Source of the DNA: a virus
Lineage: Duplodnaviria > Heunggongvirae > Uroviricota > Caudoviricetes
Length of the DNA stretch: 45,139 nt
Strand: one strand, 5' to 3'
Virus record (IMG/VR): IMGVR_UViG_2713897161_000005
Below the pieces are notes generated by a model that saw only the letters and a list, made by a program, of their open reading frames with translations, ran no database searches and was not told where the DNA came from. This document shows, in pieces, positions 2,859-39,419 of this stretch; positions within the stretch are counted from its first letter, which is position 1, and every line of letters starts with the position of its first letter. The translations under genes were made by a program, and so were the position numbers.

Positions 2859-3606
2859 NNNNNNNNNNNNNNNNNNNNNNNNNNNNNNNNNNNNNNNNNN
2901 NNNNNNNNNNNNNNNNNNNNNNNNNNNNNNNNNNNNNNNNNNNNNNNNNNNNNNNNNNNNNNNNNNNNNNNNNNNNNNNNNNNNNNNNNNNNNNNNNNNN
3001 NNNNNNNNNNNNNNNNNNNNNNNNNNNNNNNNNNNNNNNNNNNNNNNNNNNNNNNNNNNNNNNNNNNNNNNNNNNNNNNNNNNNNNNNNNNNNNNNNNNN
3101 NNNNNNNNNNNNNNNNNNNNNNNNNNNNNNNNNNNNNNNNNNNNNNNNNNNNNNNNNNNNNNNNNNNNNNNNNNNNNNNNNNNNNNNNNNNNNNNNNNNN
3201 NNNNNNNNNNNNNNNNNNNNNNNNNNNNNNNNNNNNNNNNNNNNNNNNNNNNNNNNNNNNNNNNNNNNNNNNNNNNNNNNNNNNNNNNNNNNNNNNNNNN
3301 NNNNNNNNNNNNNNNNNNNNNNNNNNNNNNNNNNNNNNNNNNNNNNNNNNNNNNNNNNNNNNNNNNNNNNNNNNNNNNNNNNNNNNNNNNNNNNNNNNNN
3401 NNNNNNNNNNNNNNNNNNNNNNNNNNNNNNNNNNNNNNNNNNNNNNNNNNNNNNNNNNNNNNNNNNNNNNNNNNNNNNNNNNNNNNNNNNNNNNNNNNNN
3501 NNNNNNNNNNNNNNNNNNNNNNNNNNNNNNNNNNNNNNNNNNNNNNNNNNNNNNNNNNNNNNNNNNNNNNNNNNNNNNNNNNNNNNNNNNNNNNNNNNNN
3601 NNNNNN
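2859..3606. other. N-run (748 nt, unresolved or masked sequence)
   Basis: Continuous n characters; ORFs crossing it are artefacts. Confidence 0.99.
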
Positions 3607-28678: not shown

Positions 28679-29560
28679 NNNNNNNNNNNNNNNNNNNNNN
28701 NNNNNNNNNNNNNNNNNNNNNNNNNNNNNNNNNNNNNNNNNNNNNNNNNNNNNNNNNNNNNNNNNNNNNNNNNNNNNNNNNNNNNNNNNNNNNNNNNNNN
28801 NNNNNNNNNNNNNNNNNNNNNNNNNNNNNNNNNNNNNNNNNNNNNNNNNNNNNNNNNNNNNNNNNNNNNNNNNNNNNNNNNNNNNNNNNNNNNNNNNNNN
28901 NNNNNNNNNNNNNNNNNNNNNNNNNNNNNNNNNNNNNNNNNNNNNNNNNNNNNNNNNNNNNNNNNNNNNNNNNNNNNNNNNNNNNNNNNNNNNNNNNNNN
29001 NNNNNNNNNNNNNNNNNNNNNNNNNNNNNNNNNNNNNNNNNNNNNNNNNNNNNNNNNNNNNNNNNNNNNNNNNNNNNNNNNNNNNNNNNNNNNNNNNNNN
29101 NNNNNNNNNNNNNNNNNNNNNNNNNNNNNNNNNNNNNNNNNNNNNNNNNNNNNNNNNNNNNNNNNNNNNNNNNNNNNNNNNNNNNNNNNNNNNNNNNNNN
29201 NNNNNNNNNNNNNNNNNNNNNNNNNNNNNNNNNNNNNNNNNNNNNNNNNNNNNNNNNNNNNNNNNNNNNNNNNNNNNNNNNNNNNNNNNNNNNNNNNNNN
29301 NNNNNNNNNNNNNNNNNNNNNNNNNNNNNNNNNNNNNNNNNNNNNNNNNNNNNNNNNNNNNNNNNNNNNNNNNNNNNNNNNNNNNNNNNNNNNNNNNNNN
29401 NNNNNNNNNNNNNNNNNNNNNNNNNNNNNNNNNNNNNNNNNNNNNNNNNNNNNNNNNNNNNNNNNNNNNNNNNNNNNNNNNNNNNNNNNNNNNNNNNNNN
29501 NNNNNNNNNNNNNNNNNNNNNNNNNNNNNNNNNNNNNNNNNNNNNNNNNNNNNNNNNNNN
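28679..29560. other. N-run (882 nt, unresolved or masked) between the lysis cassette and packaging genes
   Basis: Continuous n characters; ORFs crossing it are artefacts. Confidence 0.99.
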
Positions 29561-34080: not shown

Positions 34081-34720
34081 NNNNNNNNNNNNNNNNNNNN
34101 NNNNNNNNNNNNNNNNNNNNNNNNNNNNNNNNNNNNNNNNNNNNNNNNNNNNNNNNNNNNNNNNNNNNNNNNNNNNNNNNNNNNNNNNNNNNNNNNNNNN
34201 NNNNNNNNNNNNNNNNNNNNNNNNNNNNNNNNNNNNNNNNNNNNNNNNNNNNNNNNNNNNNNNNNNNNNNNNNNNNNNNNNNNNNNNNNNNNNNNNNNNN
34301 NNNNNNNNNNNNNNNNNNNNNNNNNNNNNNNNNNNNNNNNNNNNNNNNNNNNNNNNNNNNNNNNNNNNNNNNNNNNNNNNNNNNNNNNNNNNNNNNNNNN
34401 NNNNNNNNNNNNNNNNNNNNNNNNNNNNNNNNNNNNNNNNNNNNNNNNNNNNNNNNNNNNNNNNNNNNNNNNNNNNNNNNNNNNNNNNNNNNNNNNNNNN
34501 NNNNNNNNNNNNNNNNNNNNNNNNNNNNNNNNNNNNNNNNNNNNNNNNNNNNNNNNNNNNNNNNNNNNNNNNNNNNNNNNNNNNNNNNNNNNNNNNNNNN
34601 NNNNNNNNNNNNNNNNNNNNNNNNNNNNNNNNNNNNNNNNNNNNNNNNNNNNNNNNNNNNNNNNNNNNNNNNNNNNNNNNNNNNNNNNNNNNNNNNNNNN
34701 NNNNNNNNNNNNNNNNNNNN
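34081..34720. other. N-run (640 nt, unresolved or masked) inside the nin region
   Basis: Continuous n characters. Confidence 0.99.
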
Positions 34721-35744: not shown

Positions 35745-37625
35745 TTAATACTCCGTCACGTTTTCCTGTCGCCACGCCTCGTCATATTCCGATTTCGGCA
35801 TATTGGCGATGTAGCTATATGGAGATCCTGATTCAAGTTGCAGGAACTGGTGCGATTGCTCGTCAAGGAACAACGGGACACCACCTTCCCAACCTTCGCC
35901 GTTACGTTGTTTTTCGAGCATTAAAACAGATGCCGGAGATGCCAGTAGCTGTTCGTCCTTCTCTGACATCTTTTCACCACTCTGAACTCTCTGTAACGCT
36001 CTCTCGCGAGCCTTGTTACGCCAGATGATGAAAAGGTTGTCTGTCAGGTCTGTTATCGCTCCAGAGCCTTTTACGTCCATTTTCCCGGTTGGTTTTTCTT
36101 CGCTGTCTCCTTTTCGCGAGTGAGTAACGAGAATGACGTGGGAGTTTGTTTTGTTTTTGAAGTCACAAATCGAGTCAACAAATGCTTTCTGCCCGTTATA
36201 GTCATCGTCGCCTATGCCACATTTCATCAGGCTGTCGATGATGAATAACTGGATCCCGTATCGGCGGCGAGCGTAGTCGAATATTTCGATCAGCCTGTCG
36301 GCTTTCGCCGTTCCGGTCAGGCCAAACACCCAAAGTCTTTCGTCATAAAATTTAAATGCAGAGTCAATTTCCAGCACTGGCGGCATCTTGCAGCACGTCG
36401 CCTGACGGGTAAGGCGCTTAAGGAGAATACCAGGCTTCAGCTCAAGTGACGCGATGCACGTCTTCACACCCTGACGCATTGCCTCAAGTGCCATATGCCC
36501 GACAACCTCCGTTTTTCCGTGACCGTTCACACCATTGACCAGCGTCAACTCTGCCTCACGGAACTGGAATTTATCTGCCAGAGATTCCCACGGTGGATTA
36601 AACAGATACTGCTGCTTGCCGTAGAAAGCGTTGATAGTGTCCTGGTAAAACTCTCGCGCGCTGTAGAGTTCTTCAGGATCGAAGTAGGATGCCGTGCCGA
36701 TGTACTGCCAGATTTCATCCTCGGTAACACCGTTCATCAGGCATTCGTTGATGTCCTTGTACGGCAGAGTAACAAGACGGCAACGATGTTCACCGAGTCG
36801 GCTTGCGATTTCCCTTGCGGCTTCACGACCAACATCATCAACGTCCATCGAGATGAATATTTCCTCAAACCTGTCGAGGTTGTGATACTCAAACTCAATC
36901 CACTGTTGCTTAGCGCCTTTCCCGCCACCAAACGGCACGGATAACGCCGAGATGCCGTATTGCGCATAGCTCATACAATCAATTTCGCCTTCGCAAAGTA
37001 CAACCGCCCTCACGCCAGCGTCCAGAGCCTGCCATCCGAACAGACAAGGTTCGCAATCACCTTCTGCCATAATGACTTTCTTCCCGTCCGGGCGCTCAGT
37101 GCTGATTCGCTTGACCTGCAACAACTCACCATCGCGTTTGTACGGAATCACCAGAGCATCCAGTTCTCGCTCTCCATTCCACACCTTGCCGCTGACAACC
37201 TCGTAGCGCTTTACGATTTCTGGAGATATGCCACGCGATTGCAGGTACTCAAGATGGGATTCTGTTCTGGTAACGTAGCGGGCGATTTTCTTGCGGTCAG
37301 GTCTGGAGAATTTCTTCTCACGTCTGGCATCGAAATGGTGATCGTCATCCTTGATACCGAGAAATGCTTTCGCTTCCTGCATAGCCTGATGCAGGTTAAT
37401 CCCACGACATGCCATCCACAAATCAAGCATGTCACCGCCGTCTCCCTCAGCGAAATCAGCCCATTTTTTCTTGCCGCTAAGGTTGACCTTAAGGCTGTTT
37501 CCCTTGTCACCGTTGACGTTACCGGCAACCCACTCATGCCCCTCTTTTTTGCCGTTTGGCAACAGGTGCGGAGCCACCCTGTCAACCTGCGACCAAAGCA
37601 GGTCGCTGAGTTCACTTGGCGTCAT
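35745..37625 (-). CDS. Replicative primase-helicase (Toprim-like N-terminal half, DnaB-like ATPase C-terminal half)
   Basis: 626 aa; Walker A GVNGHGKT in the C-terminal half; occupies the lambda P position downstream of O. Confidence 0.65.
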   Translation of the reverse strand: MTPSELSDLLWSQVDRVAPHLLPNGKKEGHEWVAGNVNGDKGNSLKVNLSGKKKWADFAEGDGGDMLDLWMACRGINLHQAMQEAKAFLGIKDDDHHFDARREKKFSRPDRKKIARYVTRTESHLEYLQSRGISPEIVKRYEVVSGKVWNGERELDALVIPYKRDGELLQVKRISTERPDGKKVIMAEGDCEPCLFGWQALDAGVRAVVLCEGEIDCMSYAQYGISALSVPFGGGKGAKQQWIEFEYHNLDRFEEIFISMDVDDVGREAAREIASRLGEHRCRLVTLPYKDINECLMNGVTEDEIWQYIGTASYFDPEELYSAREFYQDTINAFYGKQQYLFNPPWESLADKFQFREAELTLVNGVNGHGKTEVVGHMALEAMRQGVKTCIASLELKPGILLKRLTRQATCCKMPPVLEIDSAFKFYDERLWVFGLTGTAKADRLIEIFDYARRRYGIQLFIIDSLMKCGIGDDDYNGQKAFVDSICDFKNKTNSHVILVTHSRKGDSEEKPTGKMDVKGSGAITDLTDNLFIIWRNKARERALQRVQSGEKMSEKDEQLLASPASVLMLEKQRNGEGWEGGVPLFLDEQSHQFLQLESGSPYSYIANMPKSEYDEAWRQENVTEY

Positions 37626-37729
37626 GATTCCCTCAGATTGAGATTTTTAAACCAGAAATCGACAAACGAAATACTTAACCAGCCGTGGTTATAACCAGCG
37701 ACCAGTAGCGATTTGATTTTTGATTTCAT
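37622..37729 (-). CDS. Small ORF (35 aa) translationally coupled between O and the helicase
   Basis: Uncalled: MKSKIKSLLVAGYNHGWLSISFVDFWFKNLNLRES; AGGTGA RBS; stop overlaps helicase ATG (ATGA); starts 3 nt after the O stop. Confidence 0.3.
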   Translation of the reverse strand: MKSKIKSLLVAGYNHGWLSISFVDFWFKNLNLRES

Positions 37730-37732
37730 GGT

Positions 37733-38593
37733 TCACCTGTCGAAAAACACGTAGCCAGTTTTCGATACGGTGATTGCGGATGATGGTTTGGATTGTGGTT
37801 GAATAGTTTCTGGCTTCTCGTCGTTCCAGCGTTGACCGTTCAGGTAGCTCGATGGTAACAACCTGTCGAATCCGAACTGCTTACCATTCCTGCATGCGAT
37901 GTCTTCTGCCAGCATCGTGGCAAATTCGCTTGCCGTACCCCTGGTAGTTTTACGCCATTCCCTGAACTGTGTTCTGAATGCCGAAGCCGCGTTTTTCTTC
38001 CCGGCTTTCCGCATGCCTGCACACCAGAATATTTCCTCGAATGCCTTGTCGGTTTCTTCGTGACGGTCAGATGATTTTTCACACTCCGTCCGAACACTTT
38101 CGGACATAGTGTTTTTATTATTTCTTTTTTCTTTTGTAATAGTTTCTTTTGTGTGTCCCTGTTTTGGTGACAGCGCTGTCACCGTTTTGGTGACACTTTT
38201 TGTCACCAATGCAGTGACATTATCACCAGAGTAGTGACACCCTTCGATTTGCCATTCCTCGATGTTCTTGTTAGGCCCGATTTGCTGGCCTTCGCGAAGG
38301 ATAACCTTCATCGCGATAAGCTCATTCTTGGCCTTGTTTACCTTCTGTCTTGGCAGCCTGGTAATTTGAGCTAACTGACTATCAGAGATGCGGTCCATCT
38401 TTTTACCGTAGCCGTATGTTTTACGGCATATGGCGTGGGCAACCTTGCTCTGATTTTTCGTTAAATCTGCGCCGATAAGCTCTTCATACAGGGCATTTGC
38501 AAGACGGGTATAACCATCTTCAACTTCTGCCACACGACGCTCCACAGGCCGTTGTGAAGGCCTTAAATGTGTTACGGTTGCAAGATTACTCAT
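37733..38593 (-). CDS. O: Replication initiator O
   Basis: 286 aa; N-terminal ...[49 protein letters not shown]... matches lambda O; iterons inside the gene. Confidence 0.75.
38111..38242. repeat. Replication origin: iteron array with adjacent A/T-rich stretch, inside O
   Basis: Dyad repeats GGTGACAGCGCTGTCACC (38166-83), GGTGACActttttGTCACC (38189-207), AGTGACAttaTCACC (38213-27), AGTGACACC (38233-42); A/T-rich 38111-38151. Confidence 0.6.
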
Positions 38594-38732
38594 GACCTTT
38601 CTCCTTCTGCATCAGCTTCACTTTTTCCAACTCAGCCCGGAATCGACCAGGCTGCTTGAAGCTGGACAAGAAGCGATCACGTAGTATGTGTTTGTGAATT
38701 TTGTCCTGGTAAGGACTGAGTTGTTTTGTCAT
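38586..38732 (-). CDS. Small ORF (48 aa) between cII and O
   Basis: Uncalled: [48 protein letters not shown]; AGGAG RBS 5 nt upstream; 3' end overlaps the O start. Confidence 0.35.
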
Positions 38733-38766
38733 AATGACTCCTGTGGATTGATCCAGTCTTTCTACA

Positions 38767-39045
38767 TCAGGCCTCGAAGAATTCGCCGTTCTTCGGGGCT
38801 TTTTCTTTTGTCAGCATTCTGGCTACTTTCTTAGCCAGTTCCGCCAACTCCTCGTCTTCAACACCCCACTCAAGAACAGCCAGAAGCATTCCCATTTTGG
38901 GGATGAAGCTGTCTTTCCATCGCGAAATTTGCGATTCATTAATCCCTAACGCGTCGGCAACCTTTCGCTGACCACGTACAGCAATTCGATTCAGGATGTT
39001 GCTTGTAATTGCATTCGCTTTCTTGCGAGTACTTGTAAGTTCCAT
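38767..39045 (-). CDS. cII: Transcriptional activator CII
   Basis: 92 aa from ATG 39045: ...[34 protein letters not shown]... matches lambda CII; the track's longer start would include nutR. Confidence 0.75.
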
Positions 39046-39078
39046 ATGTAAGTATTTCCTTAACAAATAAGAAGTTAT

Positions 39079-39096
39079 GCGCATCAACTTATGCGC
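39079..39096 (-). terminator. Hairpin between nutR and cII (tR1 position)
   Basis: 6-bp stem GCGCAU/AUGCGC with 6-nt loop, followed by moderately U-rich sequence; position analogous to lambda tR1. Confidence 0.3.
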
Positions 39097-39103
39097 GTTG
39101 TAT

Positions 39104-39146
39104 TCCCGCATTTCGGCGGGAATGAGGACCATGACTGTTAAAGAGC
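39104..39146 (-). promoter_or_regulatory. nutR (boxA GCTCTTTAACA + boxB hairpin)
   Basis: Minus strand: boxA at 39136-39146, 7 nt after the cro stop; boxB UCCCGC-CGAAAU-GCGGGA at 39104-39121. Both elements identical to those in the PL leader. Confidence 0.65.
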
Positions 39147-39363: not shown

Positions 39364-39419
39364 ACTTAAATTATCCACTAAAGGAATCTTAAGTCAAGTT
39401 TATTTAAGATGTCTTAACT
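39364..39419. promoter_or_regulatory. OR/PR/PRM region between cro and cI
   Basis: TTAA-centred operator-like motifs (ACTTAAAT 39364-71, TCTTAAGT 39387-94, ATTTAAGA 39402-09, TCTTAACT 39412-19); PR candidate on minus strand TTGACT (39392-97), 16 bp, GATAAT (39370-75). Confidence 0.5.

Follow-up and report, generated by a model that had tools for sequence, protein, structure and literature searches.

We describe a replication origin embedded in the O-like initiator gene of IMG/VR virus record IMGVR_UViG_2713897161_000005, a stretch of 45,139 nucleotides (nt) assigned to the Caudoviricetes (hereafter the window, by which we mean this stretch at its full length; coordinates without another label are positions in it). 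We are confident that this element is the theta-replication origin of a lambdoid prophage of the P22/Sf101-like type and that it follows the lambda plan, with four dyad-symmetric iterons, an A/T-rich block and a palindrome lying one after the other within the coding sequence of the initiator. This identification is carried by direct observation of the anatomy of the element, its homology to known origins, the co-variation of iterons and initiator across related loci, and a constraint that acts at the level of DNA. An earlier note, made from the letters of the window, had proposed a lambda ori architecture with iterons of a different sequence and hence a different O specificity. Both parts of that proposal are borne out: the window shares with lambda the gene family, the number of iterons, an identical register of 20/24/23 base pairs (bp) and a near-identical A/T-rich block, while its half-site is TGTCACC as against ATCCCTC in lambda and TTCCCG in phi80.

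The iteron array occupies positions 38154-38239 and consists of four 19-bp repeats with the consensus TGTCACC-N5-GGTGACA, in each of which two 7-bp arms flank a 5-bp centre (Table 1). The units begin 354, 374, 398 and 421 nt after the O start codon, which gives start-to-start spacings, in the direction of O translation, of 20, 24 and 23 bp (iteron 1 to 2, 2 to 3 and 3 to 4, respectively). With iteron 1 beginning at nucleotide 355 of the gene, the units start at codon positions 1, 3, 3 and 2, and together they encode residues 119-147 of the initiator. The right arm of iteron 4 departs from the consensus, and does so in the same way in nearly all relatives; it is part of a segment that the window has in common with phage ES18. 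The earlier note had counted four to five dyad repeats built on GTGACA/TGTCAC at this place, with a spacing of 21-24 bp; the dyads are where it put them and are regularly spaced, but they number four, and the spacing that it gave is slightly off. The putative fifth iteron was rejected, as nothing 5' of iteron 1 fits the unit, and the apparent extra dyads are artefacts of the inverted junctions between adjacent units, e.g. GGTGACAgcgcTGTCACC.

The density of the array greatly exceeds what chance would produce. Of the 23 GTGACA/TGTCAC hexamers of the entire window, six are crowded into 73 bp, as against a maximum of three per 80-nt span in 500 first-order Markov simulations; the Poisson probability of six or more is 6e-12 per span and remains about 3e-7 after multiplication by all start positions. 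The motif TGTCAC-N7-GTGACA, with up to two mismatches allowed, has seven matches in the window where 1.78 are expected, a number equalled in 0 of 100 shuffles. Those with zero or one mismatch are exactly the four units of the array, and there is no enrichment of the motif in the window outside it. A single iteron-like sequence with two mismatches, TGTCACCGTTGACGTTACC, was noted at 37505-37523, inside the 5' part of the neighbouring primase-helicase gene, and is at the level of chance (1.78 expected per window).

Directly after the last iteron, in the direction of O translation, stands a 44-nt A/T-rich block, which is presumed to be the DNA-unwinding element and agrees in place, length and composition with the A/T-rich stretch of about 40 bp that the earlier note had described. 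It opens with the box (A)CACAAAAGA, which is kept across iteron types, and 32 of the first 33 nt after iteron 4, CACAAAAGA(A/C)ACTATTACAAAAGAAAAAAGAAA, are the same as in lambda. The block runs into a palindrome that, as single-stranded DNA, folds at -11.9 kcal/mol (z = -7.6), a value equalled by 0 of 200 shuffles; it is also kept in ES18. The lambda origin, too, has a palindrome to the right of its A/T-rich block.

We surveyed homologous O genes through a scan of one genome per bacterial species, which yielded 80 loci with N-domains 47-92% identical to that of the window, and through a set of reference phages comprising lambda, ES18, 933W, phiEt88, P22, mEp213, 4A7 and RCIP0034. The reference phages display four to six dyad-symmetric 19-mers at the corresponding position, each with its own half-site, followed by an A/T block opening with ACACAAAAGA. 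This box occurs within one mismatch in 72 of the 80 related loci, and the 5' iterons align without gaps in the lambda register. Of the eight loci that lacked an automatic anchor, seven were inspected by eye: two have lambda-type iterons and a diverged box (L084 and L087), three are disrupted genes (L031, L038 and L054), one is masked (L057), and one runs off the end of a 336-nt contig (L078). No complete, unmasked O gene devoid of iterons was found among the reference phages and the loci examined; absence of the repeats, or a lack of conserved spacing, from homologous O genes had been named in the earlier note as what would overturn its proposal, and neither was seen in any complete, unmasked gene examined.

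The half-sites at these loci fall into several types, each represented by a number of distinct loci: TGTCACC by 22, from at least 15 genera of Enterobacterales; ATCCCTC, the lambda type, by 14; TGTCTCT by 11; ATTAGCC, the HK97/mEp213 type, by nine; TGTTACC, the phiEt88 type, by seven; TTTACC by two (P22 and RCIP0034); and TGTCCCA by a single locus from Aeromonas. Certain loci show departures from the common arrangement. In Photorhabdus kayaii only three iterons are present (L022, ~2845-2910), whereas the three disrupted genes comprise a Hafnia locus with the iteron array deleted and O truncated (L054, ~2800-2860), a Symbiopectobacterium locus with an insertion inside iteron 4 (L038, ~2800-2900), and a Klebsiella plasmid locus with a truncated O (L031). 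Separately, lambda O/ori sequence with an ori region identical to that of lambda was found in assemblies of unrelated bacteria (L065-L076 and L086), among them Bradyrhizobium, Paenibacillus, Shewanella, Pseudomonas, Leeuwenhoekiella, Neobacillus, Oceanobacillus and Chromatium; coverage is low for many of the contigs, and these instances are almost certainly contamination of the assemblies with lambda DNA.

Conservation across 21 distinct TGTCACC-type loci, with N-domains 70-92% identical to that of the window, was measured as mean pairwise identity. It reaches 0.90 over all positions of the half-sites and 0.86 at their third codon positions, but 0.68 in the iteron centres, 0.66 in the spacers between iterons, and 0.46 at the third codon positions of the N-domain. 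As the units start at different codon positions, one DNA word is translated in three frames; the constraint acts on the DNA and not on the protein. These observations bear on the view that the repeats are a by-product of a repetitive linker peptide with no role as DNA. Although the region encodes a Val-Thr-rich linker that is predicted to be disordered, and such linkers tolerate and often contain repeats, a repetitive peptide is at odds with units spread over three frames and does not produce the inverted repeat present in every unit. The excess of identity at the third codon positions of the half-sites over those elsewhere in the gene, and a spacing that holds to the base pair even between iteron types whose encoded peptides are unrelated, likewise speak against it, and we accord this view a vanishingly small likelihood.

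The second line of evidence is the co-variation of the half-site with the N-terminal domain of the initiator, which we traced across 73 distinct loci. A neighbour-joining tree built on residues 22-114 of the N-domain resolves the seven half-site types into single clades, with the exception of TGTCACC, which is paraphyletic in that the TGTTACC type is nested inside it. The downstream gene, in turn, is predicted almost one-to-one by clusters of the last 100 residues of O, the partners being a DnaB-like helicase, a P-like protein, a family of ~285 amino acids, or a primase-helicase. The TGTCACC iteron type occurs with four C-domain clusters and four partner types. Natural mosaics illustrate the same separation from both sides. 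Between 38121 and the O start codon, PhiR12_1 matches the window at 99.8% identity and has identical iterons, and it then continues with a lambda-type C-domain and P; conversely, ES18 is ~93% identical from the O stop codon to 38166, with gp60 and the primase-helicase in common, and has a lambda-type N-domain and lambda iterons. Since these two tracts of similarity overlap only in the right arm of iteron 4 and the conserved A/T box, we take this segment to be the crossover zone. As read from these natural recombinants, iterons combine freely with partners, which is the classical two-domain logic of lambda O. The comparison of mosaics and the N-domain tree thus support the claim of the earlier note that the window has an O specificity of its own.

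The same co-variation has to be weighed against the possibility that the palindromes are operators at which some other protein binds, for instance a repressor or a host factor, and not sites for the O-like initiator. TGTCAC-N7-GTGACA does resemble a generic operator for a dimeric helix-turn-helix protein. Nevertheless, the half-site follows the O N-domain across the distinct loci, and in the mosaics the iterons stay with that domain while the immunity region and the partner genes differ; moreover, the position, number and spacing of the units match the biochemically defined O sites of lambda (PMC7466680), and the motif lacks the enrichment elsewhere in the window that was sought. We consider an operator for another protein highly improbable and regard the units as iterons of the O-like initiator.

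Within this co-variation, the TGTCACC and TGTTACC types form a closely related pair. The matrix of 168 TGTCACC-type half-sites reads T164 G161 T157 C166 A144 C165 C100/T61. Position 4 is thus C in 166 of 168 half-sites of this group, as against T in 36 and C in none of the 42 of the TGTTACC group, and it is the only position at which the half-sites of the two groups part cleanly. Eight residues of the initiator discriminate between the two groups (30, 33, 63, 78, 80, 81, 83 and 120), of which 78, 80, 81 and 83 are placed where helix 2 meets the predicted recognition helix (helix 3); residues 78-88 are the most type-specific stretch across all seven types. We tentatively propose that the pair may constitute a natural one-base switch of origin specificity and, relatedly, that an invariant segment of ~45 bp, comprising the right arm of iteron 4 and the (A)CACAAAAGA box, may serve as a crossover site, a proposal whose chances we place somewhat short of even. 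If TGTCACC and TGTTACC initiators do not cross-react, the pair would offer a minimal testable recognition code for O-family initiators, for which, to our knowledge, no structure exists. If the proposal is true, the ~45-bp segment, being common to all types, would let origin-binding and helicase-partner modules reassort freely.

Table 1. Features of the origin, its initiator gene and the flanking early operon in the window
Feature	Position	Strand	Sequence or supporting match
Iteron 1 (ITN1, first in the direction of O translation)	38221..38239	-	O strand TGTCACTACTCTGGTGATA; plus strand TATCACCAGAGTAGTGACA
Iteron 2 (ITN2)	38201..38219	-	O strand TGTCACTGCATTGGTGACA; plus strand TGTCACCAATGCAGTGACA
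Iteron 3 (ITN3)	38177..38195	-	O strand TGTCACCAAAACGGTGACA; plus strand TGTCACCGTTTTGGTGACA; perfect 7-bp dyad
Iteron 4 (ITN4)	38154..38172	-	O strand TGTCACCAAAACAGGGACA; plus strand TGTCCCTGTTTTGGTGACA
A/T-rich block, presumed DNA-unwinding element	38110..38153	-	GC content 0.18; 70% A on the O strand
Palindrome right after the A/T-rich block	38081..38112 (arms 38081-38094 and 38099-38112)		Inverted-repeat listing
O-like replication initiator, 286 amino acids	37733..38593	-	Pfam Phage_rep_O PF04492, 1.1e-37, residues 20-114
35-amino-acid open reading frame between O and primase-helicase	37622..37729	-	ES18 gp60 homologue; phrog_21848, 4e-26
Toprim + DnaB-like primase-helicase, 626 amino acids	35745..37625	-	Pfam Toprim_2, AAA_25, DnaB_C; PHROG 239 'DNA primase/helicase', 1e-171
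pR-like promoter, 5' of cro	39370..39397	-	Promoter pattern TTGACT-16-GATAAT

The initiator itself conforms to this division. Beyond the Pfam match (Table 1), PHROG 277 ('replication initiation O-like') covers residues 1-180 and phrog_33384 covers residues 157-286. The protein can be divided into a predicted winged-helix origin-binding domain (~20-114), a disordered linker (115-175) and a partner-specific C-domain (176-286), and the origin falls where the parts of this O-family gene that encode the N- and C-domains meet. In an AlphaFold2 model built from an alignment of 20 sequences, residues 46-107 adopt a helix-helix-turn-helix-hairpin arrangement typical of the winged-helix pattern, with predicted local distance difference test (pLDDT) scores of 60-88, residues 115-175 are disordered (pLDDT <40) and the C-domain is helical. 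The disordered segment is exactly what the iterons and the A/T block encode; plausibly, because this segment is disordered, the coding region can bear a heavy constraint at the DNA level. A search of the PDB by sequence recovered no entry related to the initiator.

Lambda O is known to bind iterons, to form the O-some and to bind single-stranded DNA (PMC7466680). By analogy with this biochemistry, binding, unwinding, helicase recruitment and firing at the present origin can be pictured as follows. Dimers of the O-like initiator would bind the four iterons via the N-terminal winged-helix domain and assemble into an O-some-like complex, which would destabilise the neighbouring 44-bp A/T-rich block on supercoiled DNA. 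The C-domain of the bound initiator would then most likely recruit the phage's own Toprim/DnaB-like primase-helicase, instead of lambda P and the host DnaB, and transcription from the pR-like promoter would be expected to traverse the origin, as in lambda.

Several points weigh against this picture, or against parts of the identification. First, the AlphaFold2 model has a mean pLDDT of 57, which is of moderate confidence only, and a Foldseek search with it returned no significant match (best E 0.055); the non-significant matches are mostly winged-helix regulators of the MarR, IclR, CRP and GntR families, and the winged-helix fold of the N-domain is accordingly no more than suggestive in the model. 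Second, the primase-helicase is the presumed partner of the O C-domain, in place of lambda P, by virtue of co-occurrence only: it accompanies the C-domain type of the window (cluster 3, the ES18 type) in seven of seven loci and in ES18, whose gp61 is its homologue. Third, a central A-tract (CAAAAC) is found in iterons 3 and 4, and in lambda, but is absent from iterons 1 and 2, where intrinsic bending may differ for want of it. Fourth, the copies of the module in Escherichia coli and in phages are near-invariant (at least 99% identity in 172 of 175 genomes) and hold no signal of co-variation, so that the comparative evidence rests on the more distant loci. Finally, the Sf101 and PhiR12_1 records that we examined have no origin feature annotated.

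A related question is whether the element descends from a true lambda-type origin but has become a dead relic in this prophage. The window is a prophage that may or may not be inducible; related prophages have decayed, as in the loci mentioned above with the array deleted (L054), iteron 4 interrupted (L038) or O truncated (L031); and masked stretches in the window bar a judgement of its completeness. Against this decay in relatives stand the reading frames of O, the small open reading frame (ORF) and the primase-helicase in the window, all of which are intact, a 162-nt origin (38081-38242) identical to that of the isolated phage Sf101, and an O gene that is 99% identical to those of Sf101, mEp043 and vB_EcoP-720R6 (98-99% when SEN22 is included). 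We therefore consider a relic very unlikely. The segment 38100-38600, comprising the origin and the N-terminal half of O, is found in 175 of 5426 complete E. coli genomes (~3%), and its spread, along with the identity in Sf101 and the conservation of O in live phages, suggests a functional origin.

As a kind of element this origin belongs to the textbook. The iterons inside the initiator gene differ between lambda, P22 and phage L, and the initiators vary along with origin specificity (PMC8022706). However, the TGTCACC iteron type appears to be unrecorded: the paper on Sf101 discusses no origin, and the 12-mers TGTCACCAAAAC and GTTTTGGTGACA were found in no paper within the open-access literature that was searched. 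Being unlike the iterons of lambda, phi80, P22 and HK97, the TGTCACC type appears to define a separate initiator/origin specificity group. Our findings thus place the replication origin of a common phage and prophage module that has been left unmarked in public records. The module should be replication-compatible with lambda-type phages, because no competition for the same initiator is expected. It also furnishes a clean example of the old rule that, in the O family, evolution couples the N-domain to the iterons and the C-domain to the helicase or its loader. In the comparative set behind it, seven half-site types keep to a single 20/24/23(24) register and combine freely with four partner types, and the set points to residues that could be swapped to probe how origin specificity is read. 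Nothing here would surprise a specialist, and the most useful by-product is the TGTCACC/TGTTACC pair, which is a candidate for a minimal switch of specificity.

The genes around the origin are those of a lambdoid phage. From the pR-like promoter, genes for a P22-type Cro, CII, a DUF2740 ORF and O follow in this order on the same strand, with the gene for a cI-type repressor being divergent; by this order, the operon is the early-right operon of a lambdoid prophage, and transcripts from the promoter would cross cro, cII, the DUF2740 ORF and O, hence the origin. The gp60-like ORF of 35 amino acids is kept with the module type of the window, and over its right half the window is closest to phages N7, mEp043, IME10 and Sf101. 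Between cII and the DUF2740 ORF, on the plus strand, we observed an oop-like antisense RNA element (38725-38801), in which a 33-nt box (38725-38757) matches the conserved 5' sequence of lambdoid pO/oop with one mismatch (PMC3349717) and is followed by a 14-pair terminator hairpin with a T run (38769-38801). The DUF2740 ORF itself (38586-38732, minus strand, 48 amino acids), lying between cII and O, bears the name 'tail protein' both in PHROG 1913 and in the RefSeq records of phages, a label that looks like a propagated misannotation given the position of the ORF in the early-right operon. The cII ORF as called (38767-39132, minus strand) encodes 121 amino acids; Pfam Phage_CII covers residues 30-120 and the annotated cII of Sf101 measures 282 nt, and the true start is probably an internal ATG. 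Runs of masked letters in the window lie at 2859-3606, 28679-29560 and 34081-34720 and limit any judgement of prophage completeness. Elsewhere in the survey, the ~285-amino-acid family, which is of unassigned function, occupies the usual place of P after O genes with a lambda-type C-domain (RCIP0034, L009 1558-1907, and L015, L017, L029, L030, L034 and L066) and may be a P analogue.

Among known origins, that of lambda is the closest in plan. It belongs to the same family (Phage_rep_O), has the same position in the gene and the same operon context, following cro and cII. The annotated ITN1-4 of the lambda record lie at 39034, 39054, 39078 and 39101, that is, 348, 368, 392 and 415 nt from the start of O; four 19-bp dyads are present in both, at identical spacing, and the A/T-rich blocks are near-identical over their first 33 nt. 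In contrast, the half-sites are TGTCACC/GGTGACA in the window and ATCCCTC/GAGGGAT in lambda, the N-domains are only 49-58% identical, and the C-domain of the window is unrelated to the P-binding domain of lambda, the next large gene being the primase-helicase and not P. With the lambda specificity group (lambda, 434, 21, 933W and ES18) delimited by the half-site ATCCCTC/GAGGGAT together with an N-domain at least about 90% identical to that of lambda O, the window falls outside it by both measures; nor does it carry a lambda O + P module, having a C-domain of cluster 3 and a primase-helicase partner after the 35-amino-acid ORF.

The nearest relatives divide according to which half of the module they share. 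ES18 (gene 59, with a rep_origin annotated as 'similar to lambda ori') and its relatives epsilon34 and g341c have the C-terminal half of O as in the window, at 93-95% DNA identity, along with the gp60-like ORF, a T7 gp4-like primase-helicase, the A/T-rich block and the palindrome; ES18 differs in its lambda-type N-domain and iterons, the similarity to the window breaking inside iteron 4. Sf101, mEp043, SEN22, vB_EcoP-720R6 and the PhiR12 series, on the other hand, possess the N-domain and TGTCACC iterons of the window, with the PhiR12 phages differing in that this origin is joined to a lambda-type C-domain and P. The nearest other specificity is that of Erwinia phage phiEt88 and related prophages (TGTTACC), which have the same architecture, N-domains at most 82% identical to the TGTCACC type, and an iteron 4 that is one base shorter.

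Further afield, P22 gene 18, HK97/mEp213 and phi80 gene 15 also house the origin in an O-family gene, with four dyad repeats and then an A/T-rich block, as in the window. Their half-sites differ (ATTTACC in P22, ATTAGCC in the HK97 type and TTCCCG...CGGGAA in phi80) and their N-domains are 26-49% identical to that of the window O, phi80 being at 26%; the four repeats of P22 have previously been noted as unlike those of lambda (PMC8022706). The iteron origins of plasmids (Rep, pi and RepA) follow the same logic of repeated initiator sites beside an A/T-rich unwinding element, recognised by a winged-helix initiator. In plasmids, though, the iterons are direct repeats, and Rep_3-type proteins bind them as monomers. 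Unlike these, the units in the window are inverted repeats, presumably bound by dimers, and their initiator matches Phage_rep_O only.

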